Source of the DNA: a bacterium
Lineage (GTDB): Bacteria; Hinthialibacterota; Hinthialibacteria; Hinthialibacterales; Hinthialibacteraceae
Assembly (NCBI GenBank): GCA_963663405.2
Contig: CAXXSM010000161.1
Span: 1 to 41,845, forward strand
DNA: 41,845 nt
Direction: 5' to 3'
Both the position numbers and the translations under genes were made by a program. Position 1 is the stretch's first letter; each line of letters starts with the position of its first letter. Under the pieces are notes generated by a model. That model was given only the letters and a program-made list of their open reading frames with translations, was not told the DNA's origin and ran no database searches. This document shows, piece after piece, positions 1,521 to 35,100 of the stretch.

Positions 1521-3397
1521 AGAAACTCAATGGATTAGAAACCACCTTGGAACGTGTTGGACGAATCTTGTCACGTAAGTACAACATCTCAGTCCAATGC
1601 AAAGGCAACGAATGCAAGACTGACGGCCGGACCATCTGGCTGCCGGCGTTGCCAGACAATATCTCTGAGTCGTTATGGACTTTGGTACGTGGCGAACTCG
1701 ATCATGAGACCGCCCACATCCTTTACAGCAACTTTGATGGCCGCATGAAGAATTTCAAACAGAAATGGGGCGATTTCGGATTCGACACACTCAACGTCAT
1801 TGAAGACGTTCGAGTCAATTACGCCATGCAAAAGGAGTATCCGGGCTCACGTCATAACATCCTGCACAGTATCGCGGAGATCACTCACACCCATCCCATC
1901 GATCAAATGCCTCTCCCAGTCCGGTTCTTGTGTGGCCTGTTCCTTACCGGAATGGATCTGCCCTATGACCAGTATGGCGAAGACGCGATCGAAATGGTCG
2001 AACAATTCAAGGACGAAGCGGAGCGGTTCAAATCCCTTCGTAACACTGACGAAGCTTGTGAGATGGCGGAAAGTATCCTGGAACGCCTCAAGTATAAAGC
2101 TGAGCAAGAAAGTCAACCTTCAAATTCAAAACAACCAAATAGTACGGTAAAGAATCAAGAATCACAGTCACAATCCTCATCTGGTGAATCCAAACAAGAA
2201 TCAACAGAGAAAGATCAGCAATCGGAAAAATCCACTTTTCCTGACGGTCAAGAAGAAACTGACGATCAACAAAACGGTTCAAAGGAACAAAAGGATGTTT
2301 CTGTGGATCAACAAGATGGTTCGAAATCGGATAAACACTCGGACTCGAAAAGTAGTCCACAAAATGATTCTCAGAATGGAAATCGAGACACCATGGAACA
2401 GGCATTAGCCGGACAATACTCATCAACTGGCCATCCATTCGAGCTCCAGGGAACTATAAGAGAGCAAGTCCAAGAAGAATTCAGCGATGGAACAAACCAA
2501 GCCTACCGCGTATACGATCCATCGCTGGATAAAACCGTTACGCCTCTATCATTGGATAATGGTGAAACCTATCAGAATCTAAGCAATGCCGTTCGGCCTC
2601 ATGTCGGCGCTCTTCGTCAGCAGTTGATTCGAACTCTCCGTTCGCGCGATACCCGGTTCTGGATCAACGATCGGGAAGAAGGCCAAGTCAACAGCAAAAA
2701 GCTTTACGCGCTGCTCAATCAGGGCTCGAACAAAGTCTTTCGACAAATTCAGGAATGCGAATCCGATTCGGTGGCAGTGTCGCTTCTTATCGATCTATCC
2801 GGTTCGATGAACGGCCCTCGGATCTATTTGGCCCGCCAGGTCGTCATTCTGTTCGCTGAAACGCTCAACCAGCTGCGTATCCCCTCCGAGGTAATCGGCT
2901 TCACGACTGAGCCTTCAAAACGAGCCTTTGCCCGATTGACAAGGGAAACGGGAATGGATTTACAGGCACTCTCGCAACTCTATACCCGCTTCTTTCCCTG
3001 CGTATATTCCATCTTCAAAGCGTTCGATGAACCATTCCGGGCGCTGAAGCCCCGCGTTCCCGCCATGAACGCCCTGGAATACACGCCCATCGACGACGCC
3101 ATTATTTTCACTGCGAAACGCATCATCGTCCGAAAGGAAACCCGAAAGATCATCCTTGTCCTCACAGATGGGGAACCGTACAGCGGAAATCCAACGATGC
3201 AGCTGGCTGTCATTAAACACCTCGAAGAGAACCTGAGCAAATGCGAACAGGCCGGAATCGAGTGTGTGGCTGTTGGCATCCAGACGGACTATGTGAAGAA
3301 TTTCTTCAAAGAGAACGTAGTCGTTCAAAACCTGCCTGAACTCCCCAAAGAGTTCTACACGAAGTTCTCGGAATTACTCCGCAAAAACCGCAAATAA
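1517..3397 (+). CDS. CobT-like VWA-domain protein (N-terminal HExxH region, polar low-complexity linker, C-terminal VWA)
   Basis: LDHETAH; MIDAS DLSGS and LTDGEP; Q/S/E/K/D-rich linker; ATGA overlap with the AAA gene. Confidence 0.88.
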   Translation: MKKLNGLETTLERVGRILSRKYNISVQCKGNECKTDGRTIWLPALPDNISESLWTLVRGELDHETAHILYSNFDGRMKNFKQKWGDFGFDTLNVIEDVRVNYAMQKEYPGSRHNILHSIAEITHTHPIDQMPLPVRFLCGLFLTGMDLPYDQYGEDAIEMVEQFKDEAERFKSLRNTDEACEMAESILERLKYKAEQESQPSNSKQPNSTVKNQESQSQSSSGESKQESTEKDQQSEKSTFPDGQEETDDQQNGSKEQKDVSVDQQDGSKSDKHSDSKSSPQNDSQNGNRDTMEQALAGQYSSTGHPFELQGTIREQVQEEFSDGTNQAYRVYDPSLDKTVTPLSLDNGETYQNLSNAVRPHVGALRQQLIRTLRSRDTRFWINDREEGQVNSKKLYALLNQGSNKVFRQIQECESDSVAVSLLIDLSGSMNGPRIYLARQVVILFAETLNQLRIPSEVIGFTTEPSKRAFARLTRETGMDLQALSQLYTRFFPCVYSIFKAFDEPFRALKPRVPAMNALEYTPIDDAIIFTAKRIIVRKETRKIILVLTDGEPYSGNPTMQLAVIKHLEENLSKCEQAGIECVAVGIQTDYVKNFFKENVVVQNLPELPKEFYTKFSELLRKNRK

Positions 3398-8029: not shown

Positions 8030-10423
8030 CTACTCTATTTCGACAACGACTCTCTGGTATCTCGTTAATGGTGGGGCGCCGTTATCCGTTACTTCACAAA
8101 TGATATGGATGGTTTTTCCTTTTGAGGCATCGCTTGGTACAGAAAAGAAGGTATCCTGTTTATCGGCATTTGTTATCTCGATGTTGCCATCATCATAAGT
8201 GTCTGCTTCTTCATACCGCCACCAGCGGTAAGTCAATTTGTCTGCATCCGGATCCGTTGTTCCTTCTGCACTGCATTTCACTTTTACTCCCGGCTTGACT
8301 TGAAGGTTATTCGCATGAGTTAGTTTGACTACCGGAGGATGATTGGCATCTTCATAGGATTTCACACACCAGTCTGCCCGCGCCGCGAAATCATTCTGAA
8401 TTACATCAATCCAACGCCACTGGGGTTTGAGATACGCAGTGAGTTTCTCATCGTTTGGGATATCCTCCTTCACACGCTTGCGTCCCCACGCCGAATTTCC
8501 ATACCAACGGCCTTTTGGATACTCGTACCCAGGTTCCTGTACGGGATCGAGCCACGTGTTATCGCGTACATTAACAAAACGACCACCCCAACCGCCCCAG
8601 CCTGGCGATTCCGCGTTGTGCAAGCCAGTCGGTATGACGTGCAGAAACGAAGGCGAGTCACCCTCGGACCGGAAACGCCCATCATCGTGCGCTTTGTACA
8701 AGGCAAGCAGAGGACCGTGGTCCTGCAGGAGATTTTGGTTCATCCATTTCGTGGAATAGTAACGCTTCATTTCCTGAGATATCTCTCTCCTCTGATGGTC
8801 GTACGCCATAGCGATGAACTGGTCGGAAATGATTGTGGTAATGTTGTACTTTCCCCAATTTGGGCGGATATAATCTTGATAGGTTGAATCCTGTTCCCAA
8901 ATAAAATAGAATCGTATCTTGTTCGCCACATAAGCCATTTTTTCCGGGTGTTCTTCTTCTATGGTTTTGAGGGCTCTGGCGATTGTGTTAGGACCTCCCC
9001 AGGCTTGTAGCCAGATGGGGCGGTCATCCGATTCATCCAAGAGGACTTTGACTATATGCTGTGAACCAGGAGTGATTTCATCCATCTCTCCCTCTGATTT
9101 CACATTCCCTAAAAATGTGCGTTCTTGCAGATACTCCGGTGTGGGATACCGACTGTCATGCTTCACTAAATTTGGATAGACCTTTCTATAAGCGCTCAAG
9201 TAAGGTTGAATCCAATCATCCCCAGCCCAATTGTGTCTATGCGAATGATATTGAGAACTCGAAGTGACGATCCCTTCAATATCCCATTCATTGGCATAGA
9301 GTAGGAAGCGGACCATGGAACACTCGTCATCAATTTCACCGTCGGATGTGACAATGACTCGCGGTCTTTGAATTAAATTTACACTTGGTGTGTCAGAATT
9401 CTTCGAAAGGTATTTTGCCTGCCAAGCAGGATAATCTTTTTCTAGAAGTGAAGCCGCATATGAGCCATACCAACTATAACCGTTTCGCCGTTCGGCTTTG
9501 ATTTCATTGTAGTGATACTTTTTTATCCCATCTCGATCACAGAAAAACGGACGATTAGTTTCGATCTCATAGAATCTCGCCCATAGTGCCGGAGCATTGG
9601 GATCTTCAATGGCAACTCGGTCTCCTTCTTGCTTAATGAGACGAATACCGGTTATTTTTGCGGATTCATACCATTCTACGCCCTCTTGAATCGCTTGTTT
9701 GACTTCAGGGCAGGGATTATCCAAACTCATAAGCAGCCTGAGAATTGCAACACTTTCCCCGCCACTTAGGGATTCCAACTCATAGGAGCGCGCTGAACGT
9801 GGACGCAGATCCACTTCATCATGCTGAGCGCACCAGACAGTACGTTTGCCATTAACAACAATCTGAGAATTCAAAATACACTGGATGCCCTTGTCGAATG
9901 CAGACTTGGCAGCCTCTCGGTAATCGCTTGTCACAAATACATAATCGCTTGATTCGCTAACATCTCTAAGAAACATTAAAATCCGAACCATCGAATTATC
10001 GTTGAATGTGATATGTCGATGATAGCCATTACTGAGCGGGTAGAATTGAGGCCATCCGCCCGTTGGATACTGTGCGGCCAAAATGTGATCCAGCCCTTTG
10101 AGAAAAGCCTGCTTGTAGCGTGGCTCACCTGTTATGCAAAACGACCGGGCCAGAAACCGTAGTTCGCCAGTTGTAGCGCCATTGTCAAATGTTCCACTTA
10201 TTTTTTTCTTATCGCCTTTGTATGGCTGCTTGGCTGTGTCTTTATTCTTAGGCCAACTGCCGTAGGGAGATTGCCATGCGAGGATATTGTCAGCGATGCG
10301 TCGACCGTCTTCGCTTCGGAACCATTCATCGGACTTCTTTAGATAACTCGATGAAACTGTTGCTTCGGCGAAAGGTAATACTAGAAGAATCGAGACAACG
10401 ATAATTGAGAATTGCATTTTCAT
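8030..10423 (-). CDS. pelA: Secreted pectate lyase (PL10/PelA family) fused to DUF1593 (nucleoside-hydrolase-like) and a C-terminal beta domain
   Basis: Signal peptide from ATG 10423; WPKN, TFDNGAT, GGWPQFYP, ITFNDN, WCAQH, ARSYE, ERRNGY; then RVIVTSDGEIDD, WGGPNT, EGDSPSF, WGGWGGRF, DFAARADW. Confidence 0.88.
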   Translation of the reverse strand: MKMQFSIIVVSILLVLPFAEATVSSSYLKKSDEWFRSEDGRRIADNILAWQSPYGSWPKNKDTAKQPYKGDKKKISGTFDNGATTGELRFLARSFCITGEPRYKQAFLKGLDHILAAQYPTGGWPQFYPLSNGYHRHITFNDNSMVRILMFLRDVSESSDYVFVTSDYREAAKSAFDKGIQCILNSQIVVNGKRTVWCAQHDEVDLRPRSARSYELESLSGGESVAILRLLMSLDNPCPEVKQAIQEGVEWYESAKITGIRLIKQEGDRVAIEDPNAPALWARFYEIETNRPFFCDRDGIKKYHYNEIKAERRNGYSWYGSYAASLLEKDYPAWQAKYLSKNSDTPSVNLIQRPRVIVTSDGEIDDECSMVRFLLYANEWDIEGIVTSSSQYHSHRHNWAGDDWIQPYLSAYRKVYPNLVKHDSRYPTPEYLQERTFLGNVKSEGEMDEITPGSQHIVKVLLDESDDRPIWLQAWGGPNTIARALKTIEEEHPEKMAYVANKIRFYFIWEQDSTYQDYIRPNWGKYNITTIISDQFIAMAYDHQRREISQEMKRYYSTKWMNQNLLQDHGPLLALYKAHDDGRFRSEGDSPSFLHVIPTGLHNAESPGWGGWGGRFVNVRDNTWLDPVQEPGYEYPKGRWYGNSAWGRKRVKEDIPNDEKLTAYLKPQWRWIDVIQNDFAARADWCVKSYEDANHPPVVKLTHANNLQVKPGVKVKCSAEGTTDPDADKLTYRWWRYEEADTYDDGNIEITNADKQDTFFSVPSDASKGKTIHIICEVTDNGAPPLTRYQRVVVEIE

Positions 10424-10604
10424 GAAACTATCCTTTATATTTTCTATGATATTGTTTGACGATCCGCATTCAGGATAACCGCCGGCCTGTTCGACTGTGG
10501 TTCTACTTGGATAAGGAAATATTCTCACTCGATACGAATCTCCACACGGAATATTCTCAATTGAACTAATTCTTCATTAAAAACAACAAATTCTTGGAAC
10601 GCGT

Positions 10605-11588
10605 TCAATCTTCTTGAACGTTCATTTTATCAATCGCAACGGCAAGCAAGATTACCATTCCTTTAATGACGAGCTGCCAGTTGGGAGAGACATTCAGCAA
10701 TGTCAGACTGTTGTTCAACACGCCGATGATTAAACATCCGAAAACTGTACCTAGAATTGATCCCCGGCCGCCGGAAAGTGATGTGCCCCCGATCACAACC
10801 GCCGCAATTGAATCTAACTCATAGCCGATCCCGGCATTGGGCTGGGCGGAATCCAGTCTTGCAGTAACGAGAATGCCACCAACAGCGGATAGAACACCGG
10901 CCAATGAATACACCCATAATTTCACCTGGTTCACATTCACTCCGGATAAATGCGCAGCCTGTTCATTCCCACCGACAGCAAAAATATATCTTCCCAATTG
11001 TGTATGTAAGGTAAATACGATAAATAGAATTATTAAAATACCCGAAATCCATACGGGGAGAGGGAATCCAATCACGGGATCATATCCTGTCCCGATTTCC
11101 ACAAACGTATCCCCTAATCCAGTAATGGGAAAACCACCTGTCCATAACCGGGTTAAACCTCTCGCGACACTTAGCATTCCCAGCGTTGCTACAAAAGGCG
11201 GAATGCTTAACTGAGTAATCATGATACCATTAAAAAGTCCAAGTAAACCGCCAACCAGCAATCCTCCGATAATTGCGCCATGAACTGTGAACTCAATAAA
11301 TAGGTTAAGTGATGGAACGCCAACTCCATTTTTTAAAAATCCGGCTGTAATGGCCCCTGATAAAGCGAGAATAGAACCAACGGAAAGATCAATCCCCCCG
11401 GTTAGAATGACCAATGTCATACCAATAGATAGACACAAATTGATCGATATTTGACGCAAAATATTCCAACCATTATCGACCGTCAAAAAACTCGGATGCA
11501 AGAAACTCATGATGAGAACCATGAGCAACAGCGCAATTCCGGATTGGAAACGCGTAAGCGTATTTTTTATGGATAGTTTCTGATGCAT
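10605..11588 (-). CDS. Monosaccharide ABC transporter permease (RbsC-like), probably for apiose
   Basis: TGGIDLSVGS, PPFVATLG, GGNEQAAHLSG, YELDSIAAVVIGGTSLSGG. Confidence 0.93.
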   Translation of the reverse strand: MHQKLSIKNTLTRFQSGIALLLMVLIMSFLHPSFLTVDNGWNILRQISINLCLSIGMTLVILTGGIDLSVGSILALSGAITAGFLKNGVGVPSLNLFIEFTVHGAIIGGLLVGGLLGLFNGIMITQLSIPPFVATLGMLSVARGLTRLWTGGFPITGLGDTFVEIGTGYDPVIGFPLPVWISGILIILFIVFTLHTQLGRYIFAVGGNEQAAHLSGVNVNQVKLWVYSLAGVLSAVGGILVTARLDSAQPNAGIGYELDSIAAVVIGGTSLSGGRGSILGTVFGCLIIGVLNNSLTLLNVSPNWQLVIKGMVILLAVAIDKMNVQED

Positions 11589-12253
11589 TAAAGGCCTTTT
11601 TCAATCTTCAAAGTAATCGGAATTAGTTTTAATGGATGCAGGTCTGTGTCTTCATCAAGAATTTCACAACAGCCTACAAAATGTACGCGGTCTCCGAGAG
11701 AAACATTGTCCTTAAATGGCGGCAGCACTTCATTTTCGACAATTTTATTTAAATTCATGGATATTCGATTGAATTGCTGCGAGTTTGGAAAATCACTTAC
11801 ATTGAGTTGATTGCTCCCATTCCGAATGGCGTTTCCAAAAATTTTCCCCGTCATGATTCGAACATCCGGATTTAGATTCTCTTGCTGCAGAACAACAGCA
11901 ACAGCATCTTCATCAATCGATTTCACATAACCGGTCCCCTTCAGATAATAATAATATACACTGCCAATGCCAATTGTATTAGAGTATTGTTCCTTTGCTT
12001 GATCTGGATCATTCTTAATCAATGGCGCCAGTGTCTGAATAGAGACCGCCTGATCAATGGATTGCAGTAGTTGATTTTTCCAAAAATCCTTCGAAAATTC
12101 TTCTGGATCAAACTGTTCCATCTTTTGTTTCCGCTCAATCTCGTCCAATTTGTGAATGTGAAATAGCGGGAACATATAGCCAACAAAGGCAAGCAACAAA
12201 ACCGCCGATATCCATCGAATATAAACCATTAAATCTCTATTCCTTTTTCCCAT
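11588..12253 (-). CDS. DUF2291 family periplasmic/membrane-anchored protein
   Basis: N-terminal TM helix; [11 protein letters not shown]...[16 protein letters not shown] motif; lies between SBP and permease. Confidence 0.8.
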
Positions 12254-13175
12254 AGGCTTCGTATTTTTTTATATTCTCTTGAGTGACCAATTCAACGATA
12301 ACCGGCACTTTTTGTTGAAAATCACGTTTCCCACCCAAGTATTTATGCGCTCCTTCCGCTGCCATTTTCGCCATTAGTTTTGGGAACTGCATCACGGTTG
12401 CAACAATTTTCTTTTCCATAATTGAATTAATAACATCTCCCGCGCCATCAAATCCAAATACTTTCACATCTTTATCTTTGCCTGCCGAGGCCAACGCCTG
12501 ATAGGCTCCCATTGCCATCGCATCGTTTCCACAAAAAACGGCTTGAATGTCAGGATGGGCTTGTAATAAACTCTCCATGATTTCAAGCGCTTTGGTTCGA
12601 TCGAAATCGGCCGATTGTTGGGCTACCATTTTTAAATCAGGATATTGATCGACAACGCTGTGAAAACCATTGGAGCGGTTAAACGTATTGTTGTCTCCTA
12701 CCAAACCGAGCAATTCAATGTAATTCCCCTTTTTAACTGTTTTTACAAAATACTGGCCTAATGCGACACAACCGGAATAATTATCAGAAAGGTATTGCGC
12801 AACAGCGGCATTTGTGGAATTGATTTCCCGGTCCATACAAAATACGGGGATTCCGGCCTTTTTCGCTTTTTGCGCATTGCCAATCGAGCCATCCGCATCC
12901 GTTGGATTGAATAGAACCGCACGATAACCTGCGGCGATAACATTTTCAAAGTGTTCTGTTTCCTTGGCTGTATCGTTCATTGAGTCAAAGATGGTGACGT
13001 CGTAACCAAGCGCCTCCGATTCTTCTTTTGCCGTTTCCGCCAGGACAACAAACCAGGGATTGTTTAACGTGGAAACAATGACCGCAACCTGGTTGGTTTC
13101 GGGAGCCTGATTTCCACAACCAGCAAACGTGAGTAATCCAATTGCTAAAACGAGAAAAAGTGTATACCGATTCAT
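12237..13175 (-). CDS. Sugar ABC transporter substrate-binding lipoprotein (RbsB-like, probably D-apiose)
   Basis: Lipobox FAGC; [32 protein letters not shown]; ATG 13175 follows GGGGAG. Confidence 0.9.
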
Positions 13176-13205
13176 TGTTATGTCTCCCCTTTTTTTAAGC
13201 ATGAA

Positions 13206-14690
13206 TTAGCCGAGTACGCGTTGTACCGCTGTTTTCCATCCCTTATAGTACGTGTCTGCTTTTGATGAATCCATGGAGGCTTGATAGCGTGTTAATTCTC
13301 TTGGAAATGCAGCCATATCGTTTAACGACGAATATACGCCACTGCCTAACATTCCCATCATAAAGGCGCCCAAGGGTGATAAGGCGGGATCGTTGGATAC
13401 CTGCAAATCCAGTCCCGCAATATCCGATGTAAATTGCATTAAAAATTGATTTGTCGATGCCCCCCCATCCGCATGGATGGACTGTAAACTGACACCGGAA
13501 TCGTTTTTCATCATATCCAATACATCGCGAATCTGATAAGCAATTGATTCAAGAGCCGCCCTGACAATATGATTCTTTGTACTATGGGCAGAGAGTCCAA
13601 CAATGGCCGCTCGAGCTTCGGGATTCCAATAGGGAGCGCTCAATCCAGCAAATGCCGGGACCAAGTAAACACCGCCATTGTCGCTTACGGCTAGAGCAAG
13701 TGTTTCTGTCTCTTGCGGATCGTCAATCAACTTCATTTGATTCTTCAACCAGGAGATCGTAGCGGCGCTGTAATTGATAATCCCCTCAAATGAATAGGTT
13801 ACTTTGTCATCATAACACCAGGCAATGGTTGTCATCGCGCCGCTATCCGTCAATTTGAAATCCGATCCGATATTCAACAATACAGATGATCCAGTTCCAA
13901 ACGTCGATTTGATCATGCCCGGCTCAAAACAACGCTGAGCGAATAGGGATGCCTGAGAATCACCCATGACACCGTATATTGGGATTTTATAGCTTAGCAA
14001 TCCATCGATATCCGTTTCACCATACTTGGCAGTGCTTTCCAGAATGGCTGGAAGGGATTGTATTGGAACATTGAACAATTGGCATAATGTTTCATCCCAT
14101 TCCAAGTTGACAATATCGTAGAGCAGTGTCCGGCTTGCATTGGTGAAATCGGTTGCAAAAGTATGGCCCTGCGTTAGTTTATAGATCAAATACGTGTCAA
14201 TAGTCCCAACAATGGCTTCTCCGCGCGATAGTTTATTTTTAATTTCTTCTTGATTGGCTAGCAACCATTTCAATTTCGAAGCAGAAAAGTATGTATCGAT
14301 TTTTAAACCGGTTTTTTGACGAATCAGGTCATGATACCCATCGTCAATCAACTGGCGGCAAATGGGATCGCCCCGCCTGCATTGCCATACAATAGCGTTA
14401 TAGAGGGGGGCTCCCGTTTCTTTATCGAAGACAAGAATTGTTTCCCGTTGGTTGGTGATACTTAAAAACGCGATTTCGTTTACTCGGTTGGAATTTCTTT
14501 TTAGTAACAATTGGATGGCTTTTTTGGTATTCGACCAGATTTCGATTGGATCGTGCTCCACCCAACCGGGTTTTGGATAGATCTGCTGATGATCTAGCGA
14601 TTCAGAATCCAGGCAATTCCCATTATCACCATACAGGAGCGCTTTAGTCGCTGAGGTGCTTTGATCGATCGTTAAAAAAGTTTTCATCAT
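13206..14690 (-). CDS. aplK: FGGY/glycerol-kinase family sugar kinase, probably apulose kinase
   Basis: IDQSTSATK, PGWVEHDP, ITNQRET, WQCRR, GDSQASL, TFGTG, ADGG; function assigned from context. Confidence 0.75.
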   Translation of the reverse strand: MMKTFLTIDQSTSATKALLYGDNGNCLDSESLDHQQIYPKPGWVEHDPIEIWSNTKKAIQLLLKRNSNRVNEIAFLSITNQRETILVFDKETGAPLYNAIVWQCRRGDPICRQLIDDGYHDLIRQKTGLKIDTYFSASKLKWLLANQEEIKNKLSRGEAIVGTIDTYLIYKLTQGHTFATDFTNASRTLLYDIVNLEWDETLCQLFNVPIQSLPAILESTAKYGETDIDGLLSYKIPIYGVMGDSQASLFAQRCFEPGMIKSTFGTGSSVLLNIGSDFKLTDSGAMTTIAWCYDDKVTYSFEGIINYSAATISWLKNQMKLIDDPQETETLALAVSDNGGVYLVPAFAGLSAPYWNPEARAAIVGLSAHSTKNHIVRAALESIAYQIRDVLDMMKNDSGVSLQSIHADGGASTNQFLMQFTSDIAGLDLQVSNDPALSPLGAFMMGMLGSGVYSSLNDMAAFPRELTRYQASMDSSKADTYYKGWKTAVQRVLG

Positions 14691-14696
14691 CGATTC

Positions 14697-15659
14697 TCAC
14701 CATTTCGAAAGCAATGATTTGGCGATCCCCGCCAATCCTTTTCCGCTTATATCATAATGCGAAAAGATTTCTAGTTGCTTGCCGGTAATGGTATATTCAT
14801 CCGGTATGCCTACGATTTTAAAAGGCAATGATAATCCAGTTTGCAACAGAACCGATGCGCACGCTTCACCTAAACCGCCAAAAATACTATGTTCCTCGAC
14901 GGTCACGATGGCTTTGCATTCCCGCGCAGTTTTAAGTAAACATTCCCGATCCAAAGGTTTGATTGTATGCATGCTGATCACGCGTGCTTGTATTCCATTC
15001 GTTGATAATAATTCGGCCGCTTCGGCCGCCTGGTACACAGTTTCACCACAGGCGACAAAAGCAACATCACTTCCATCTCGAATTTGAATGGCTTTTCCAA
15101 TTTGAAAAGGTGTCTCCGGATCGACGAGGTGTTCCATAGGACGTTTCCCAAGCCGAACATATACGGGATGCTCTGTTTTCGCTGCGGCGAGTATAGCCTG
15201 CTGTGTCTCAAAGTTATCTGCGGGAGCGATAATATCGATGTTATGGATTGCCCTAAGCGCGGCAAAATCATGAATCGCATGGTGGGTTGATCCTAATGCG
15301 CCATAACTTACTCCCGCGCTGATCCCAATCACTTTTACTGGATTATCTGAATAGGCAGCGTCATTCTTTATCTGTTCCAACGCTCTAGCCGTTAAAAAAC
15401 AAGCCGGTGAGACGACAAACACAATTTTGCCTGTTGAAGCCAAACCGGCGGCGATTCCAACCAGGTTTTGTTCTGCAATTCCAACTTCAATAATTCGATC
15501 CGGAAACGCATCGCCAAAGGATACTAAGCGCCCAGAGCCTCTTGAATCACTCGTCACCACATAAACCGATTTATCCCGTTCCGCCAACTCCTGAACAGTG
15601 GCTGAAAATATTTTTAGATTTTCGGTTCCTAATTCAAACTGTTTCATCTTTATTGCCAA
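14697..15659 (-). CDS. aptB: Transketolase C-terminal subunit, probably apulose-4-phosphate transketolase B
   Basis: GIAEQN, GSTHH, TIKPLD, VEEHSIFGGLG. Confidence 0.78.
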   Translation of the reverse strand: MAIKMKQFELGTENLKIFSATVQELAERDKSVYVVTSDSRGSGRLVSFGDAFPDRIIEVGIAEQNLVGIAAGLASTGKIVFVVSPACFLTARALEQIKNDAAYSDNPVKVIGISAGVSYGALGSTHHAIHDFAALRAIHNIDIIAPADNFETQQAILAAAKTEHPVYVRLGKRPMEHLVDPETPFQIGKAIQIRDGSDVAFVACGETVYQAAEAAELLSTNGIQARVISMHTIKPLDRECLLKTARECKAIVTVEEHSIFGGLGEACASVLLQTGLSLPFKIVGIPDEYTITGKQLEIFSHYDISGKGLAGIAKSLLSKW

Positions 15660-15666
15660 TCATTTT

Positions 15667-16479
15667 CTATGTATCTTCTAATTCTTTCATCGCTAAATCA
15701 AATTGTTCGTCACTTGGAACTTTGTGATGCCAGTTGGCGATGTTCTCAATGAATGAAATCCCTTTTCCTTTTACTGTATTTGCGATAAGCAAACTAGGCC
15801 TAGATTTCTCGAACGGAACGGATTGCAATGTGCGTTCCATCGCATCGAAGTCATGTCCGTCAACACACTGAACCAACCAACCAAACGCTTCAAATTTTTG
15901 GACTAACGGTTCTGTGTTACAGACATCTTTTGTTTTCCCCGTTATTTGTAATGCATTCCGATCGACAATCGCTATTAGATTATCCAGATCGTAATGAGAA
16001 GCGGTTAACGCCGCTTCCCAATTGGATCCTTCCACCAATTCCCCATCGCCCAACAATGTAAAAACGCGGTAATTCAAGCGGTCTTTCTTCCCAGCGATGG
16101 CAAGCCCAACACTGATGGACAACCCATGTCCCAACGCGCCGGTATTTTGTTCGATCCCATGAACTTTTCGAGTGGGATGCCCTACATAATGGGATTGGTA
16201 TTGACAGAGAGTTTCGAGATCGGATTCGGGGAAAAATCCCCGGTCCGCTAACACAACGTATAGCGCTTCTACAGAATGACCTTTGCTTTGAATGTACCGG
16301 TCTCGATTAGGATCAGAAAACTTTTCCGGACTGACGTTTAATATTCTGTTATAAAGAACGTTCAAGATATCGATACACGAAAGCGAACCACCGGTGTGTC
16401 CGGCATTTGCTTTTTTGATATAGGTTAAGATTTTCTTCCGGTATTCAATCGATTTTTTTTGAATTTCGATTCTCTGCAT
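15667..16479 (-). CDS. aptA: Transketolase N-terminal subunit, probably apulose-4-phosphate transketolase A
   Basis: GHTGGSLS, SKGH, TGALGHG, TPP motif GDGE...N, KGKG. Confidence 0.78.
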   Translation of the reverse strand: MQRIEIQKKSIEYRKKILTYIKKANAGHTGGSLSCIDILNVLYNRILNVSPEKFSDPNRDRYIQSKGHSVEALYVVLADRGFFPESDLETLCQYQSHYVGHPTRKVHGIEQNTGALGHGLSISVGLAIAGKKDRLNYRVFTLLGDGELVEGSNWEAALTASHYDLDNLIAIVDRNALQITGKTKDVCNTEPLVQKFEAFGWLVQCVDGHDFDAMERTLQSVPFEKSRPSLLIANTVKGKGISFIENIANWHHKVPSDEQFDLAMKELEDT

Positions 16480-16495
16480 GGCTGGATTTCTCGGA

Positions 16496-17911
16496 CTATT
16501 CAGATTGCAAATGATAGTACGTTTCCCATTTCAGATACGTCTCAAAAACTTCTGATAATACTCGCGCCGAATGTGAAAGATTGATAGCGACATGATGTTC
16601 GAAACCTTCCTTACACACATATCGCATCAACGATTGTAACTGTGGGATATGGGCGACTGCGCGGCTGCCAAACGTATCCAAAGAGTCATCCGTTAATACG
16701 CCCTCTCCGAAATAGGTTCGAATGCATCCTTGAGTATCATCCGTCGATACACGGCAAAATGTTAGAGGGCCTGCCGGTGTACGTCCTACCAACGCCCCGT
16801 GGGTTGTATCTTTTCCAATAATCGTTTCCAGAATCGGAGCGGTCGCGATTTTTGGATTTGGAAGGTACGTTTTCGCCCAATTTCCACAGTGGAATAATAC
16901 GCATTTGTCAGCCTCCCCTCCATAATTGTTGTTCCAATCGGCTAAGGCGCTGGGAATACCGGAAGCCAATTGCATGGCATACATCCCAACCACACCGGAA
17001 ATATCCACTTCACAACCACTTGGCATGAATTTCTCACTCATCATACTCATCAATGTACAGGCATTCACACCAAAATTTTGTTGTAACGATGTCCAGCACT
17101 GAAACGCCGTCGCGTCTAAATCCAGTTCTTCCATCCAGTCAGTTGTTACAACCAGCAATTTGGCCATCGCCGATATGGACGCTTGCGGTACGTCTCCCGC
17201 ATTGGCGTATGCATTAATTTCGTCGAGTTTCGCACTCACTTTCGGATCGTCATTATCCAATTTCTGGATTTGCCCAAGAAGTTCAGACAAATCAATTGTA
17301 TTGACTGTAATCCCAGCTGCTTGGAACAGTTTCTCGCTATAGCGAACGGTGTTGAACGCATTCGGCCGTGCGCCAATTGCCCCAAGTCTTGCTTTCCTGA
17401 GTCCATTAACCGTTCGGCAAACGGAGATAAATCCGCGCAAATCATCCTTAAATGAATCGCTCAAGGGATGAACCGTATGCTCGCGCGTCAATGAGAACGG
17501 GAATCCATATTGCCGCAGGTTATTGCATACAGAAATTTTACCACAAAACGCATCCCGGCGCCGTTCTACATTCAAACCGTCTAATTCGTCGGGATACGCT
17601 TGTACGAATATAGGGACATCCAATTCAGAAAGTTTCAGTGTGTCGGCGATCCCTTTCTCATCACCGAAATTTGGCAAGCAAATCAACACTCCTTCGATTT
17701 CACTTTTCTGTTTTTTAAAGAGTTCGGCGCATTGATTCGCGTGATTCCATGTCTCAACAGAACCAAGTTTCGTTTGATCGTCACTCAACCAAATTGGCCG
17801 GATATCGAATTCTTCAAACAGTTTTATTAAATCTCTACGGGCTTCACTGATGAGTATATCAGGGAAGAAATCTCGATTTCCAATAATGACCGCCAACGTA
17901 AATCGGGACAT
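16496..17911 (-). CDS. L-fucose/L-arabinose isomerase family protein (putative apiose isomerase)
   Basis: PNFGDE, RRDAFCGKIS, CEVD, FHCGN, GFEHHVA. Confidence 0.82.
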   Translation of the reverse strand: MSRFTLAVIIGNRDFFPDILISEARRDLIKLFEEFDIRPIWLSDDQTKLGSVETWNHANQCAELFKKQKSEIEGVLICLPNFGDEKGIADTLKLSELDVPIFVQAYPDELDGLNVERRRDAFCGKISVCNNLRQYGFPFSLTREHTVHPLSDSFKDDLRGFISVCRTVNGLRKARLGAIGARPNAFNTVRYSEKLFQAAGITVNTIDLSELLGQIQKLDNDDPKVSAKLDEINAYANAGDVPQASISAMAKLLVVTTDWMEELDLDATAFQCWTSLQQNFGVNACTLMSMMSEKFMPSGCEVDISGVVGMYAMQLASGIPSALADWNNNYGGEADKCVLFHCGNWAKTYLPNPKIATAPILETIIGKDTTHGALVGRTPAGPLTFCRVSTDDTQGCIRTYFGEGVLTDDSLDTFGSRAVAHIPQLQSLMRYVCKEGFEHHVAINLSHSARVLSEVFETYLKWETYYHLQSE

Positions 17912-17966
17912 TGGATACTCCTATTATCAATTTAGAATTTCACCAGATAATGTGTTGAACATAGAA

Positions 17967-19517
17967 TTATCTTATTACTTTTAAACATACAGCTTCATAT
18001 TGATTCCGGGTCCGATAATGAAAGACACCAGGTTGAATTTTACCTTTAGTTTTGATTGTCATATTCCAAGTGTCAATCACTTGCCATTGGTAAGGAGTCT
18101 CCCCCGTTAGGTTCAGATTGATTTCTATATTGGCGTCTGCTGCATAAGCCAGATAAATATGTCCATCCTTTTTGAAGATATAGACATTGTTATTCTTGTT
18201 TTTAGGCTGGTCATTGGCCACGAATAACGGCTCCATTTCCTTCACTGGAACTGTCTCCATAAATGATTTGAAGAACGCGATCCGTTCCGGACTTTTCCCA
18301 ACCAGCAAACCTCCCTTGGCCCACCAGCGTACTTCCGTCTCATTGTCAGAAGAATTGATATAGGTATCGCCGTGAGTCCCATAGCCACCGCTGAGACCCG
18401 CCATCCAAAAATAACTGGCCATTTCTTCACTGGACATGTTCCCCCAGCTGCTTTCTACATCGCCTTCGTAACGCATCTCATCAAACAGCAGCGGTTGTTT
18501 ATACTGGTTCCGCCATTTGATTGCGTTGTAGAAATGAGATGTTTGAGTGCAGGTGTGGGTGATCCACGAGCGGGTGTGGTCATAGAAATGATCTTCCGTA
18601 TCATACCAGTTGTGAATGCCACGAAAATGCTGATGCGGATCCTCATTTTGCAGAATTATCCCAATTCCTTCCCAATCAATACTGTCTTTGATCCTTGGGA
18701 TATCCCACTCATTCGCCAGCGACCACCAGACATTGCGATAGGCGGATATCCGGGCGATCATATACTGCACATAGCGGAAATTGTTTTCGTCCCCCATTTC
18801 TGAATATCCCCATTTGTCATAGGGATGAAAGAGGATGACATCCGCCTGAATGCCCAGATTCAACAGTTGTGAGATTCGCTTGTCAAAATTTTGGAAAAAG
18901 GAGTAATTCGGACGATCAAAATCTTTAATGGATTGGTAGGGATAAGCCCAAGGTTCGGTGTCGTTTCCGTATTTGTATGATTTGGGGAAAACACACATAC
19001 GGATTTTATTAAATGGAGCGTCGGCTAGAGTTTTTAGTGTTTGTTCTTGAATGCTTTGCTTGACGCTGGTCCATTGATAAGCGGTTGTTCCGATAGAATA
19101 AAATGGAGTTCCATCAGCGTATTCCAGATAGTATGTATTGACGATTTTGAGTGGACCGTGATTGTTACCAGTTGGTTTAACACATTGAAACGAACCAGTT
19201 ATTTTATCCAATTGAGGATTATTGCTATCCGTGATAAATGTCCAGTTTCCAAGCGTATCAGGAGAAAATCGTACTTTGTATTCCCCTTGACCGTCATAAA
19301 AACCGGGCATGGAAACCTTCCTTGTTCCATTTTTGAAATCTGCTTTGAAATCGACTTCCAAATAAGGATTTCCAGAGGAAGGCCCGTTCAAACAGAGTTC
19401 GTATACATCCCACTGCTCTACTTGGACGGTTTCAGCGGTTAGATTGCTACCACAAGTACTAAACCAAGTCGTGAATAATGCGATTGTTATTGTAATAATG
19501 TTGTGGTACTTTGTCAT
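17967..19517 (-). CDS. Secreted DUF5060/DUF4038 glycoside hydrolase, GH140 apiosidase-like
   Basis: Signal peptide; GFYDG..YKVRFSP, GTTAY.W, PFNKIRMCVFP, LFHPYD, WWSLANE, GIHN, DEMRYEG, THG. Confidence 0.82.
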   Translation of the reverse strand: MTKYHNIITITIALFTTWFSTCGSNLTAETVQVEQWDVYELCLNGPSSGNPYLEVDFKADFKNGTRKVSMPGFYDGQGEYKVRFSPDTLGNWTFITDSNNPQLDKITGSFQCVKPTGNNHGPLKIVNTYYLEYADGTPFYSIGTTAYQWTSVKQSIQEQTLKTLADAPFNKIRMCVFPKSYKYGNDTEPWAYPYQSIKDFDRPNYSFFQNFDKRISQLLNLGIQADVILFHPYDKWGYSEMGDENNFRYVQYMIARISAYRNVWWSLANEWDIPRIKDSIDWEGIGIILQNEDPHQHFRGIHNWYDTEDHFYDHTRSWITHTCTQTSHFYNAIKWRNQYKQPLLFDEMRYEGDVESSWGNMSSEEMASYFWMAGLSGGYGTHGDTYINSSDNETEVRWWAKGGLLVGKSPERIAFFKSFMETVPVKEMEPLFVANDQPKNKNNNVYIFKKDGHIYLAYAADANIEINLNLTGETPYQWQVIDTWNMTIKTKGKIQPGVFHYRTRNQYEAVCLKVIR

Positions 19518-19589
19518 TTTTTACCTTGATAGAATGTTTTTTATAAAACATGTAATTAGAAATTCGAATCCATGAAATATTTCTCTGTT

Positions 19590-20439
19590 ATCGAGTAGGG
19601 TAAGGTAGGAAAATCAATCCTACCTTATCCCTCTCACAGAACCGTACGTACGGGCCTCGTATACGGCTCCTGTTGATTCTCCTTCATTTGACTGAAACAG
19701 AAGTCTCGCTCCTGCATCCTCTTCTTTCGAAATCATCACTTCCCCTCCGGCTCTTCGCTTGGACGATGTCGTCTTCTATCCCTCTCGGGCAATGTGCGGC
19801 CTCATTTCCAAACTACTCCGGCGAACAGCCCAGGAAGGCAGACCGCCTTTCACAGCGTACCGCTTTCCAAGTGCCCCATCCCGACGAATGGCTTATGTTC
19901 GGTTCCACGCTTCTTTCGATTTCCGAGAACCTTCGAATCAACTTCCTCCCTTCGCAACCAGCGGCGCTTTTGGCTTCTCCGTCGGCCCCTGCGAACTTGG
20001 CCGCAGGTCATCCCGGTTTTCTCCTCCAGACGGTTACCCGCTTTCTCCGGCCGGGATTTCAACACTACTACGGATTCATCTGCCACCTCACACCGCTTCG
20101 ATCCGTCTCGAGTCTCCTCTTGAGTTTCACTATCCGCTCCGGCTGTGCCGGGCGGAACGATATGAGGCTTCCCCAGTTACTGACGGGTTCCTGTGAACTG
20201 CCCCATCCTCAAACACGTCACGGGTCTGACCAAGTTTTGGGCGTTGCGCTATTTAGCACGCTTACCCACCCGCGCCGCCGAATCAGGTTCGCTTGCGCTA
20301 TGTGCCGTTCACTTCCTATCGCTTCCTTCAGACCCTGCCGTTGCCAGCAACGCCCTTGCGATTTGGATTGTCTTCCCCTTGGCCGGGGCGACGCCTGTTT
20401 CTTTCAACAAGCCGGAGTTGCCCGCTTCGCTGGGCAAAC
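19590..20439 (-). ncRNA. ORF-less group II intron (about 850 nt)
   Basis: Minus strand: 5' GTTTGCCCAG; domain V GAGCCGTATACGAGGCCCGTACGTACGGTTC (19669-19639); domain VI ending CCCTACTCGAT; no RT ORF. Confidence 0.9.
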
Positions 20440-20440
20440 T

Positions 20441-20470
20441 AAAAAAAAGAAGCCGATCAAACCTTCTTTT
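20441..20470 (-). terminator. Terminator-like stem-loop directly upstream of the intron 5' end
   Basis: Minus strand AAAAGAAG-gtttgatcgg-CTTCTTTT-TTTT-A then the intron start. Confidence 0.6.
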
Positions 20471-20628
20471 TGTTTTCATTTCATTCCTGATGAATTTGAA
20501 AATCCTAATTGACGAGCAATATTTCTTTAAAGAAAACCTTTTAACAGTTAAAAGATAAGGTTATTATATGCTGGTCAATCTTTGTATTCTATTCGTTTTT
20601 ATCGATATTACTGTCGGATTCTAGCTCA

Positions 20629-21507
20629 ATGACCACATTCGATCCAGCAAGAAAAGACTTTCAACCCTATGGTTTTTCATGTGTTAGATGGAAAGCGACA
20701 TTGATGTCCCGTACGGACCGTCATAATGAGATCGAAATCAATCTACTAGGAAAAGGATCGTTGACCTATTTATTTGGCGGTCAGAAAATAAAAGTTCCTC
20801 ATCATCGATTTGTTGCTTTTTGGGCGGTCATACCACATCAGGTAATAGACTTCACTGATTTGGATGATTATTTCGTGATGACGATTCCATTAACGACATT
20901 TCTCCAGTTTGAGTTTCCCTCTACTTTTGTACAACAAGTGTTACAAAATCAATTCATAATCGATCCGGATTCGAGAGAATATAACGCGGATGAATTACGA
21001 ATAACGAAATGGTTAGAAGACCTTAAATCCAAAGATGATGAACTCATTCGGATTTGTCTATTGGAAGTCGAAGCGAGATTAAGGCGCCTTATTTGTAAAT
21101 TAGAATCTTGTCACAGCGATAAAAAAAATACAACCGTTTATTTAGGGAAGGGGGATTTGAGTAATGTAGAGAAAATGGCCCGTTTCATTGCGCAGAACTA
21201 CACAAAAAGTTTGACAGTAAATGAAATCGCTGACTCGGTCAACTTGCATCCCAATTATGCAATGCGGACATTCCGGAAGACTTTCGGTATAACAATGACT
21301 GATTACATTGTTGAACATCGCTTATCTCACGCGCAAAAACTTCTCATTACCTCCAACGATTTAATTTTAGACATCGCTCTTAATTCAGGTTTTGGATCGC
21401 TTAGCCGGTTTAATGTAACTTTTAAGAAAATCTTCCAATGTACTCCTAGCGCATACAGAAACAATTACAAAATAAATCCAATTCATCTCGACTCAGAGAT
21501 GGTTTAA
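20629..21507 (+). CDS. AraC family transcriptional regulator (MelR-like), divergent from the sugar operon
   Basis: Cupin HNEIEIN, FWAVIPHQ; LHPNYAMRTF, IALNSGFGSLSRFN, TPSAYR. Confidence 0.93.
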   Translation: MTTFDPARKDFQPYGFSCVRWKATLMSRTDRHNEIEINLLGKGSLTYLFGGQKIKVPHHRFVAFWAVIPHQVIDFTDLDDYFVMTIPLTTFLQFEFPSTFVQQVLQNQFIIDPDSREYNADELRITKWLEDLKSKDDELIRICLLEVEARLRRLICKLESCHSDKKNTTVYLGKGDLSNVEKMARFIAQNYTKSLTVNEIADSVNLHPNYAMRTFRKTFGITMTDYIVEHRLSHAQKLLITSNDLILDIALNSGFGSLSRFNVTFKKIFQCTPSAYRNNYKINPIHLDSEMV

Positions 21508-32150: not shown

Positions 32151-35100
32151 CCAGCTCACGAAGTTGTTCGTTTGCCCGGCGTAAATCAGACAAACTATGA
32201 CCTAGTTTCATATGACGATTTAACGCGTAACAAGCAAAAAGGATAATCAAAACAACAGACAATGTCATGAGAAAAAGAAACATTGGTTTTCTATACCACG
32301 GCTTCAAGACGATTAAAGAATAAAGGGCCGGGGAGGAATCGATATTTCGATTTCGGTCCATGGCTCGAACTTGGAAAACATGAGATCCCTCCGTCATCCC
32401 TGTAACTGAAACAACGGTATGGGAAGTAAAGGAAGACCACTCATTGTCATCAATTCGATGCGAATATAAAAGACGATCGGTTTTCGTCATCTTCCACTTA
32501 TCCACTCCCGTAAACGCAATTCGTATAGATCCTCCAGAAACGATTTCTTCAGTTACGCTGTTTTTGTAGATCCGTGTTCCATTATCATCGATGTAGGTTT
32601 CCGGCGGATCACAATCGTTTTCCGGATGATATAGACTTACTCCCTTTCGTGTTGCAACCCAGATTCTGCCTTGATTGTCTTGAAAAATATCGTTGATGTT
32701 ATTATGGGGAAGATCATCTTGGATCGTATTTTCAATCCAAGATCCATTCCAGTAAATGTATAATCCATTTCGAGTTCCAACCCATATACTGCCATCCCTT
32801 ATTTGCCGCATCACATTAATCCTGTCCAATCCGCTTTTTAATTTTTCCCAATGATTACCGTTAAATTGATAAATATCATAATGCGAAGAAATCCAGATCT
32901 TTTTATCTTGTGTCTGCAACATTGTTTTTGCGCTGCTTCCCGGGTATTTCTTCTCGTCTTCGCTCAAAATTCGTTCTCCGTGGAGATAACGGAACAGTCC
33001 TGCGCCTGTGCCAATCCATAATTCTTCGTTCTCGAGTTTTTCAACAAAGTTAGGTTCTTGCCCATAATACATCAAAGAATTATATTTTTGGTTAGTTCCA
33101 GGGATGTTGGATCTACTGATAATGGATTGATACTGCGTTCCATCATAAAGACCGATTGATTCTCCACTCCATAACCACAATTGATTTCGATTCAATTGTC
33201 CTATCAGACGATTCTTCATTTTTGTGTTTTGCTGGTTGAACAAATAATGGACCTGTTTTGTCACAGGTTCGTATTCAACGACTCCACTCCAGAAATTCGT
33301 CACGATTTTTCCATTGGGCAAGACAGCAATCTTAGAACCCCATTCGGAATTATTCTCGAAACTCCATTCATTATTGTTGTGGAGACACGCTAGAGTACCA
33401 TCATAAGAAATCCAAATTCGATTGGAAGAATCTTGAATGATTGAATACGCAATGGAGTCTTTATTCTGTAATTCGTAAGGTGTCTCCCAAATGGCGGACG
33501 AGTAACGGGAGAGACCTTGTTCTGAAAGAAACCATATTGCGTTATGATCATAGCTTTTTATATTACTTATATCGATCTTCTCTCCGGTGTCAGAATCTAT
33601 ACCGCCAGAATACAGTTTCCCATTGTGTCGAATAACAATAGGATCATATTGGACTAAATCTATGTTCGGTAAATCAACATGATCCGGTTTAAAATCCAAA
33701 AGAAATCCGTTTCCTGTAAACAGGAAAGGGGTACGTTTTCCCATAAAGACAATTCCTTCGACAAAACCATCAAACGTATATCCAATTACAGCCCCATTCT
33801 GTGTTTCGGTTTCAACAATATATGGTCCTGAGGGAGCAGGTGAAGAAAATTCTTCCCATACACCCTTACATGTAAAGCAGGCAATCCCATCTTGAGCGCT
33901 TACCCAAATTGTTTTTCGGTCTTGACCAAGCGTCAAATTATAGAATTTACCCAAAGTCGTGTTTGTTACATCTTTAATAGGAGTTGAAACAGCGTTTTGT
34001 GACGTATACTCCATAATTCTCTGATCATTGGAGATGTATATCATACGATATTTATCGAGAGGAACGAAACTAGGGCCAAAAGCGGAAAACAATAATTGTG
34101 GTATTACCGTATGTTCGTTCCATTCGCCATCTAGTTTATGCTCAGCGAAATCGTATGTGCGCAATACGGATTTGTCATTCCAATCTGACGCCCAAAAAAA
34201 GTATTCAGGTTCTTCCAAAACAAATGATAAAGGTGTATCAGGGAGTGGATAAACAATGTAGCCATCAAAATAACAAGATCTAGCTCCGGTCAATAATGAA
34301 TTCGTAGGGCCGGAAGACATTTGGAAGAAAAAGAGGGGAATTCCTTCCTTTCTACTCCAGTGACGCCAAATCCCGGGCGCACTCGGTAATTCTTCTGCGA
34401 TTATATCTACCTTTTTAACAATGGGAGAGGTAGAAAGTTGAGGCAGTGATTCGTATCTAGTCTGGATATCTTTTTGACTCAGCGCGACATTGTGAACTTT
34501 TATCTCATAGATAACACCATCACAACCACGGCTCTCATCTGAATCTCTGTATGCGCCGATCACATACGGAGTTCCCTGTAGGTATTTAATATCGCCCGAT
34601 TGTATCGTACAGGAATTTTGTAAACGACCATTCACATAGATTTGCTGAGTGATACCATCGTACACACCGACAACATGATACCATTTATAGTTTTCAAATG
34701 AGGATAGCGCAGACAAATAGGTTACTTTGTTTTCTGAATTCTCGTTACCTACACTGGCTATAGCAAAAAAGAAACGATGTCCATGATATCCCAACAACCA
34801 TCCGAATCCGTCATTGTATTTTATGTTGTCTTCAAAACAGCCAGTGATACTATTGCAATATAACGTGTCATTTAAGCGCAAATACGCTTCCACGGTAATT
34901 TCTTTTTGAGGTAAAATTACTTGAGAACCATCATCCGAAATCAAAACTGCGTTCGCTTGACGGTTCAATTTTATCGGAGAGAGGCACAATCCTCTATCAT
35001 TTTCTTTATCAAAAAACTCAACGGGAAACTCAATCTTCGCATCATGATTACCAGCCAGATCTATAACTGTATTCGCTGAAATATGGGTGACGTCAAAAAT

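Follow-up and report, generated by a model that had tools for sequence, protein, structure and literature searches.

The window, i.e. the whole stretch of 41,845 nucleotides that was analysed, carries on its minus strand a run of sugar genes and, on the opposite strand, a divergent regulator of the AraC family; a group II intron without a reverse transcriptase (RT) gene lies between the two. The features of this arrangement are as follows.

8030..19517, minus strand: host gene run with apiosidase-like/DUF5060, fucose-isomerase-family, split transketolase, FGGY kinase, sugar-binding protein, DUF2291, permease and pectate lyase fusion genes (Pfam)
19518..19589, minus strand: 72-nt leader in the 3' exon, with the IBS3 A at 19589 and a Shine-Dalgarno-like AAGG at 19527-19524 (sequence)
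19590..20439, minus strand: group II intron without ORF, g6 lineage, 850 nt (Rfam matches; ends common to three copies and an RT-encoding relative)
20440..20471, minus strand: 5' exon target, a weak hairpin (20471-20444 as folded), a U8 tract and IBS1 UUUA at 20443-20440 (fold)
20558..20570, minus strand: conserved 13-nt block with TATAAT (20568-20563), a probable -10 element for the promoter of the operon; a TATTAT directed towards araC overlaps it on the other strand (identical 13-mer in genome G009, L095:2908-2920)
20629..21507, plus strand: divergent AraC-family regulator, MelR-like (Pfam and comparison)

The gene run probably serves the catabolism of D-apiose, a role assigned because its first gene is apiosidase-like in Pfam and because a kinase is accompanied by two transketolase subunits. 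The fucose-isomerase-family protein, which matched no solved structure, presumably acts as the isomerase of this pathway. According to the account in PMC13001218, a kinase together with two transketolase subunits defines the apiose cluster and pathway. The run is closed at 8030-10528 (minus strand) by a pectate lyase domain fused to an Sde182 nucleoside-hydrolase-like domain and C-terminal domains, and at 426-3397 (plus strand) the window contains genes for a MoxR-type AAA ATPase and a CobT-like VWA protein, followed by a partial SNF2 gene and an IS481-like integrase gene. The araC gene starts 189 nt before the intron on the opposite strand, and the TATAAT block is found 124 nt upstream of the intron.

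The intron extends over 850 nt from 20439 to 19590, beginning with GUUUG and ending with CUCGAU. Two further full copies, which differ by 3 and 4 nt and have unrelated flanks, are present on contig C81 of the same assembly (82% complete), and an RT-encoding relative of 2096 nt is present on contig C77; the ends are identical in the three copies and the relative, while the flanks differ, and are thereby fixed independently. A sequence-only reading of this DNA had described an intron of about 850 nt with both ends, domains V and VI and no RT, had placed the first ATG 72 nt beyond it and had suggested Rfam covariance models as a check. Rfam and the comparison of copies bear the intron out, and the ATG is indeed located at 19517. 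Both RF02001 (group-II-D1D4-3; 66.5 bits with a cut-off of 32, E 2.8e-11) and RF00029 (Intron_gpII; 43.6 bits with a cut-off of 40, E 1.9e-5) score above their thresholds, and these two are all the gathering-level Rfam matches of the whole window, both within the intron. Folding of the whole intron gives z = -5.9, with none of 20 shuffles equally stable, and domains VI and V reach z = -6.6 and -3.0, respectively. On the intron strand there is no ORF of 90 aa or more, and the longest antisense ORF (279 aa) has no match in Pfam. The intron comprises the following elements.

20435..20439, minus strand: 5' end GUUUG, a lineage trait (T3 and T4 kept in at least 90% of 22 aligned g6 introns)
20172..20439, minus strand: domain I, intron nt 1-268 (22-intron consensus fold)
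20252..20255, minus strand: EBS1 UAAA (a 4-nt loop, intron 185-188), which pairs 4/4 with IBS1 UUUA; GAAA in the RT-encoding relative (covariation)
20213, minus strand: EBS3 U (intron base 227), which pairs with the first 3'-exon base A; A in the relative (covariation)
20079..20081, minus strand: putative J2/3 junction A-G-A, in keeping with the AGC triad (aligned to three class C introns)
19684..19715, minus strand: scar of the RT deletion in domain IV, where the old ribosome-binding site GCAGGAG (19715-19709) is fused to the last RT codons and the stop (19702-19684) (alignment with the 2096-nt relative and other g6 introns)
19639..19669, minus strand: domain V, 31 nt, with the AGC triad at 19668-19666 (Rfam, fold)
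19592..19636, minus strand: domain VI, with a bulged branch-point A at 19596 (fold)

The hallmarks of group II introns are found here as a domain V triad and bulge, a bulged A in domain VI, a scaffold of domains I to III, and the EBS1-IBS1 and EBS3-IBS3 pairings. In the consensus fold of 22 aligned 5' regions, two-sided changes occur at 69 of the 117 predicted pairs, counted among related and hence not independent elements, and 114 of the 117 pairs are kept by the window copy; eight paired-site differences separate its 5' ribozyme from that of the C77 relative, with pairing kept at seven. All six domains apparently remain intact, the RT gene having been deleted. The insertion is not a quirk of the assembly, because contigs from public sequencing runs (X1, X3, X4 and X5, all of them contigs of unrecorded kind) bridge its 3' junction (X1) and its 5' junction (X5, from a different study). 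Runs X3, X4 and X5 also contain, at full depth, an identical variant of the domain II loop at window positions 20142-20147, which in X5 is joined to the window's own 90-nt upstream flank. [quoted passage not shown]

The sequence-only reading had noted the GUUUG end, a domain V of 31 nt and an AGC triad and had left the intron class uncertain; these features stand, and the uncertainty is resolved by the RT tree, which places the intron, as judged on the RT of the 88-93% identical C77 relative (the window copy has none), in the class-C-like clade g6. The C77 RT/maturase is an uninterrupted protein of 420 aa with YADD (TIGR04416, 417 bits with a cut-off of 300). Its best plasmid match, with 70.6% identity, is from Desulfotalea psychrophila (NC_006139), whose plasmid intron is labelled g6 in supplement Table 3 of Miura et al. 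2022 (PMC8919778); we read the name D.p.I1 of the g6 papers as referring to this intron. In a tree of 28 proteins, which includes only this one labelled g6 reference and omits two relatives with frame problems or partial matches as well as other partial loci, the C77 and Desulfotalea RTs belong to one clade of 20 rows (support 99/99), and a separate clade (97/97) holds three RTs labelled class C in the same Table 3.

The g6 introns have been defined as a clade outside class C with a similar RNA structure (Toro and Nisa-Martinez 2014, PMC4244168), and they often occur directly behind terminators (Miura et al. 2022, PMC8919778). Under a strict definition the element is not of class C, its triad being AGC instead of the CGC given as the class C rule in PMC1702495 and its relative's RT falling outside the class C clade of the tree. 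In an alignment with class C introns, J2/3 reads A-G-A here and A-G-C there, matching the AGC and CGC triads, respectively; no EBS2 was seen, a judgement confined to the collinear alignment. Relatives from several phyla share GUUUG, the short domain V and AGC, and since the GUUUG end and the short AGC domain V are both family-wide, their interpretation as defects was rejected. Elsewhere in the assembly, a separate domain V/VI with a CGC triad, class-C-like, occurs on contig C147 near 12681 (minus strand), and a distant RT (29% identity) on contig C100 at 33940-34548.

Target recognition of the lineage can be described at the level of single bases. With five of 30 aligned rows (truncated, tandem or without flanks) omitted, the two C81 copies dropped and the relatives not independent of each other, in 19 of 23 elements the first base of EBS1 complements exon base -1 (permutation 0/100,000), and EBS3 (intron base 227) forms a Watson-Crick pair with exon base +1 in 13 of 18 (permutation 0.0014), each being the best-scoring column of the alignment. 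The choice of target would be class-C-like, consisting of a DNA hairpin, a 4-bp EBS1-IBS1 and one EBS3-IBS3 pairing, where the pairings are indicated by covariation and recognition of the hairpin is presumed from class C. The proposal of the sequence-only reading that a hairpin and T tract are targeted gains support from the family, in which folding energies of -10 kcal/mol or lower are reached by 21 of the 23 fully flanked sites. For the window site itself, the stem-loop and T tract that it had seen 1 nt before the intron are present, but the strength implied by a terminator-like structure is not: the hairpin has a folding energy of -7.3 kcal/mol (z = -1.14, with 25 of 200 shuffles equally stable), is not called by the terminator scan and is the second weakest of the sites.

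Most sites of the family (24/29) follow an ORF on the same strand, and only two of the 29 are leader-like, namely the window site and one with a doubtful ORF call. One of the other two RT-less copies follows a strong hairpin, 439 nt before the next gene on the same strand, and the other is found at the end of a contig, ahead of an IS. In the case of the RT-encoding relative, the hairpin in front of the insertion belongs to a dispersed repeat of ~130-190 nt (C77:9500-9665 and 11762-11810), of which many intron-free copies exist in the genome. The window copy would have landed recently on a weak hairpin and U tract, with the probable promoter of the sugar operon on one side and its first gene on the other, and the leader of a sugar operon is probably an uncommon location for a g6-type intron.

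Whether the intron is part of the operon mRNA depends on the position of the transcription start, which, on sequence comparison, we consider fairly likely to lie upstream of the intron. The evidence is provided by genome G009, in which the operon from the isomerase onward is 84% identical over 7.4 kb and lacks both the intron and the first gene. Its upstream region and the araC-side flank of the window have in common the identical 13-mer, whose TATAAT is read on the operon strand, and, collinear with it, a second block, and their local alignment score of 56 exceeds those of all 1304 control upstream regions (maximum 50) and of all 2000 shuffles; this block was first noticed by eye and then tested, and stems from one ortholog only. 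The sequence-only reading had made its inference conditional on a promoter on the araC side, and this condition is supported by the TATAAT block conserved in G009. The poor -35 would be expected for an activator-dependent promoter. Upstream regions of more distant isomerase paralogs were also considered as carriers of the block, with unconvincing scores of up to 42 versus 56. Promoters of the organism show a peak at a 17-nt spacer, consensus promoter scans performed at chance level, and a promoter matrix trained on the genome was too weak to rank candidates (median 1.51 for divergent versus 1.37 for convergent regions).

Alternatively, transcription of the operon could begin within the 72 nt of the 3' flank, or the promoter in the conserved block could serve araC only, and the intron would then lie upstream of the mRNA and be irrelevant to it. 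The best promoter-like match in the 72-nt leader is the weak TTCGAA-17-TATAAA at 19568-19540 (8/12), from which the genome-trained matrix did not separate the other candidates, but this flank is not conserved: it cannot be aligned with the G009 leader (score 18, and 1522 of 2162 controls score as high). The conserved block likewise reads as a promoter on the araC-facing strand, yet G009 keeps it in the direction of the operon, and what lies upstream of the operon there is not araC but IS fragments. On balance this alternative appears unlikely. A syntenic araC was not found at E 1e-40 in 19 genomes of the family, nor in G009, although such an empty answer shows little, and the orthologs of the first gene in G009 and G018 are situated in other contexts. 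The intron-free leader of G009 has, at a comparable position (L095:3025-3046), a small hairpin and T tract, and the leader hairpin may be an older feature of the operon; where the window has the apiosidase-like gene, G009 retains a short stranded gene start with a ribosome-binding site, an ATG and an early stop (L095:3072-3131).

Readthrough of the hairpin would yield transcripts with the ribozyme in the leader, and the sequence-only reading had suggested that splicing could gate expression of the operon. This is not borne out. The intron interrupts neither a reading frame nor the ribosome-binding site, both of which lie in the 3' exon, so that unspliced RNA would be translatable; the predicted accessibility of the Shine-Dalgarno and AUG region changes little (0.46 before and 0.65 after splicing, against 0.52 for the isolated 3' exon); and the position of the intron is not conserved, as it is absent from the orthologous operon of G009, the one informative ortholog. 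The insertion is also recent, as the copies are only 3-4 nt apart. The terminator scan called no terminator-like sites on the intron strand. To judge from these predictions, the intron probably does not gate the operon, and it would be a passenger that may slightly lower or reshape the mRNA and may itself gain transcription from the operon promoter, with translation independent of splicing.

If class C is taken as a guide, the intron is more likely to cause occasional cleavage of the leader than to gate the operon, and such cleavage could alter mRNA stability. Class C introns without RT are reported to cut mostly by hydrolysis (PMC4748821), and a class C intron behind a mispaired hairpin yielded linear intron and no ligated exons in the in vitro experiments of PMC1702495. 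In view of the latter result, absence of the ligated junction in RT-PCR would not show inactivity. An intron-skipping joint does not occur among the contigs of X1, X3, X4 and X5, which can show presence and not absence.

A stronger role, in which the operon mRNA needs cutting or splicing of the intron for its stability or translation and in which RT supply or ribozyme activity tunes sugar catabolism, would gain from the probable promoter upstream of the intron, the rarity of leader-like sites in the family and the predicted rise of accessibility upon splicing. By the class C analogy, hydrolysis and possibly failed ligation behind weak hairpins would moreover give the operon mRNA a new 5' end. 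The uninterrupted frame and ribosome-binding site, the smallness of a merely predicted accessibility shift, the recent insertion and the intron-free ortholog all count against such a role, as does the fact that the other two copies are not in comparable leaders, and we judge it improbable. Similarly doubtful is a scenario of early domestication, in which the intron, placed behind a sugar-inducible promoter and not at a gene end, would be produced as ribozyme upon sugar induction, making this copy a sugar-triggered donor for insertions elsewhere, and cutting dependent on an RT encoded at another locus would set the 5' end and level of the catabolic mRNA.

The sequence-only reading had further inferred a non-autonomous family mobilised in trans, and had proposed a search of the genome for more copies and an RT-encoding parent. 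The two copies on C81 and the RT-encoding relative on C77 answer this search and lend support to the family. Compared with the C77 relative, the RT-less intron has 88% identity in nt 1-731 and 93% in nt 738-850; there are no differences in domains II and III, whereas domain I (251/268) and the front of domain IV (235/303) diverge, which makes the C77 intron a cousin and not the direct parent. All three RT-less copies have one deletion junction in common at different flanks. As the alignment shows, an RT-encoding ancestor lost its ORF a single time, by a deletion reaching from immediately ahead of the start codon to ~6 codons short of the stop, and the ribozyme and the front of domain IV were retained. 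In runs X3 and X4, which represent one sample, a 366-nt contig spans the deletion junction with 0 differences at a word depth of 63-64, compared with 0-3 for the flanks of the locus; word depth is a sum over organisms and not a copy number, and the difference shows that the RT-less form clearly has a presence beyond this locus, at further sites or in different carriers. The 90-nt flank upstream is not repeated within the assembly, and a search of metagenome contigs for the empty allele with a 20-nt 3'-flank pattern gave three matches, all with unrelated flanks.

The insertion sites point to the element itself as the mobile unit. The three RT-less sites end in UUUA, UUUA and UUUU and have A at +1 throughout, so that EBS1 of the RT-less intron matches two of them fully and the third at 3 of 4 bases, and EBS3 matches all three. 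The C77 site ends in UUUC, and an A at -1 or +1 would be mispaired with the EBS1 (GAAA) and EBS3 (A) of C77, respectively. The sites therefore fit the RT-less ribozyme and not that of C77, as expected if the RT-less element reverse-spliced itself. One ORF deletion at several unrelated sites, matching EBS/IBS pairs and a related intact RT in the genome are what characterises a non-autonomous element, and the sequences make its mobilisation by a borrowed RT the most likely course. We are reasonably confident, on the same comparisons, that the three hairpin sites in this bacterium were reached by copying of the RT-less element, which would have been mobile recently and looks intact.

Splicing and retrotransposition would be assisted by an RT in trans, plausibly the 420-aa C77 protein, besides which no other close RT was found in the 82%-complete assembly, or a closer relative outside it. 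The 5' part of domain IV is thought to be the RT-binding region, a role that PMC2882425 states for IIA introns, and given only 235/303 identity in this part, the C77 RT may not be the helper. That the copies were never mobile as RT-less units, being full-length insertions later gene-converted from one deleted copy, or that the element is now inert, is very improbable: the copies are homogeneous, the element contig of X5 stops at the deletion junction with no piece past it listed (a hole that proves nothing) and relatives decayed by internal deletion exist, but the assembly yielded no full-length intron that has UAAA/U sites, and 114/117 consensus pairs, the triad, J2/3 and the branch A are all kept.

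The decayed relatives are two internally deleted g6 derivatives of 160 nt (genome G003, C133:4803-4962, L076, minus strand) and 456 nt (genome G008, C244:2504-2959, L075, minus strand), which retain both intron ends and are placed behind hairpins; the shorter consists of the 5' tip and altered domains V-VI only and is MITE-like. Both are probably products of in-place decay. In a Bacillota MAG, an 865-nt RT-less g6-type intron (L048:3361-4225) directly follows an RT-encoding intron and has as its target the domain VI hairpin and 3' end of the latter; it is an independent ORF loss within the same lineage. Contig C18 of the assembly contains, at 40575-40704 (L005), 130 nt identical to intron nt 523-652 in domain IV, lying within a long reading frame that is in register on both sides, although the insert has a stop; possible origins are capture, by RT or by recombination, and chimeric assembly. 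Taken together, the explanation that accounts best for the locus, and that we hold with good though not full confidence, is a non-autonomous g6 element that inserted recently into the leader and is carried there as a passenger.

It is known already that ORF-less bacterial introns borrow RTs and that g6 introns lie behind terminators. According to PMC4424553, ORF-less bacterial introns are nearly always accompanied by a related RT in the same genome, and Miura et al. 2022 (PMC8919778) count 888 introns without RT among 13,041. A tested model is offered by the ORF-less introns of Thermosynechococcus elongatus, described by Mohr et al. 2010 (PMC2882425) as derived by one deletion, diverged in EBS and mobilised by the RTs of sister introns; the window element resembles them in its single ORF deletion, its new sites with good EBS/IBS pairing, its EBS divergence and its presumed RT in trans. 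In that account, however, the introns are of IIB1 type, with 17 ORF-less copies and mobility established by assay, whereas the present element is a hairpin-targeting g6 intron with three assembled copies and known from its sequence.

With the g6 introns of the D.p.I1, Pe.th.I1 and Al.or.I2 group (PMC4244168, PMC8919778), the window intron has in common the RT clade, the class-C-like RNA and the place behind terminator-like hairpins; it differs in lacking an RT gene, in its three sites, in its own EBS1 and EBS3 and in having one copy in a probable 5' leader. The class C introns B.h.I1 and O.i.I1 (Toor et al. 2006, PMC1702495; Monachello et al. 2016, PMC4748821) are alike in the 4-bp EBS1-IBS1, the single EBS3-IBS3 pair, the apparent lack of EBS2, the hairpin of the 5' exon, the short domain V and a branch A seven bases from the end. 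They are set apart by CGC and a J2/3 of AGC, where the window intron has AGC and AGA, by the GUUUG end and long non-coding domain IV of the latter, and by its relative's RT, which branches apart from class C. The literature searched, to which subscription papers, theses, the Zimmerly database and most supplements did not belong, contained no description of an ORF-less g6 family or of EBS rules for g6.

To these systems the present locus adds targeting rules for g6 at base level (a 4-bp EBS1 and a single EBS3) from covariation, and a natural RT-less g6 element in which both EBS1 and EBS3 are retargeted. It also adds a copy that is probably transcribed with its host operon, although class C introns are described as hiding behind terminators and being rarely transcribed (PMC7306698), and this class normally hides from transcription. 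If cutting or splicing in the leader altered the output of the operon, it would show a selfish ribozyme at the start of becoming a regulator; the evidence so far speaks for a passenger. In this respect C.te.I1 of Clostridium tetani (PMC4024640) is comparable as an ORF-less bacterial intron proposed to shape host gene expression, but it fuses reading frames by alternative splicing in a genome without RT, whereas the window intron touches no frame and has an RT-encoding relative.
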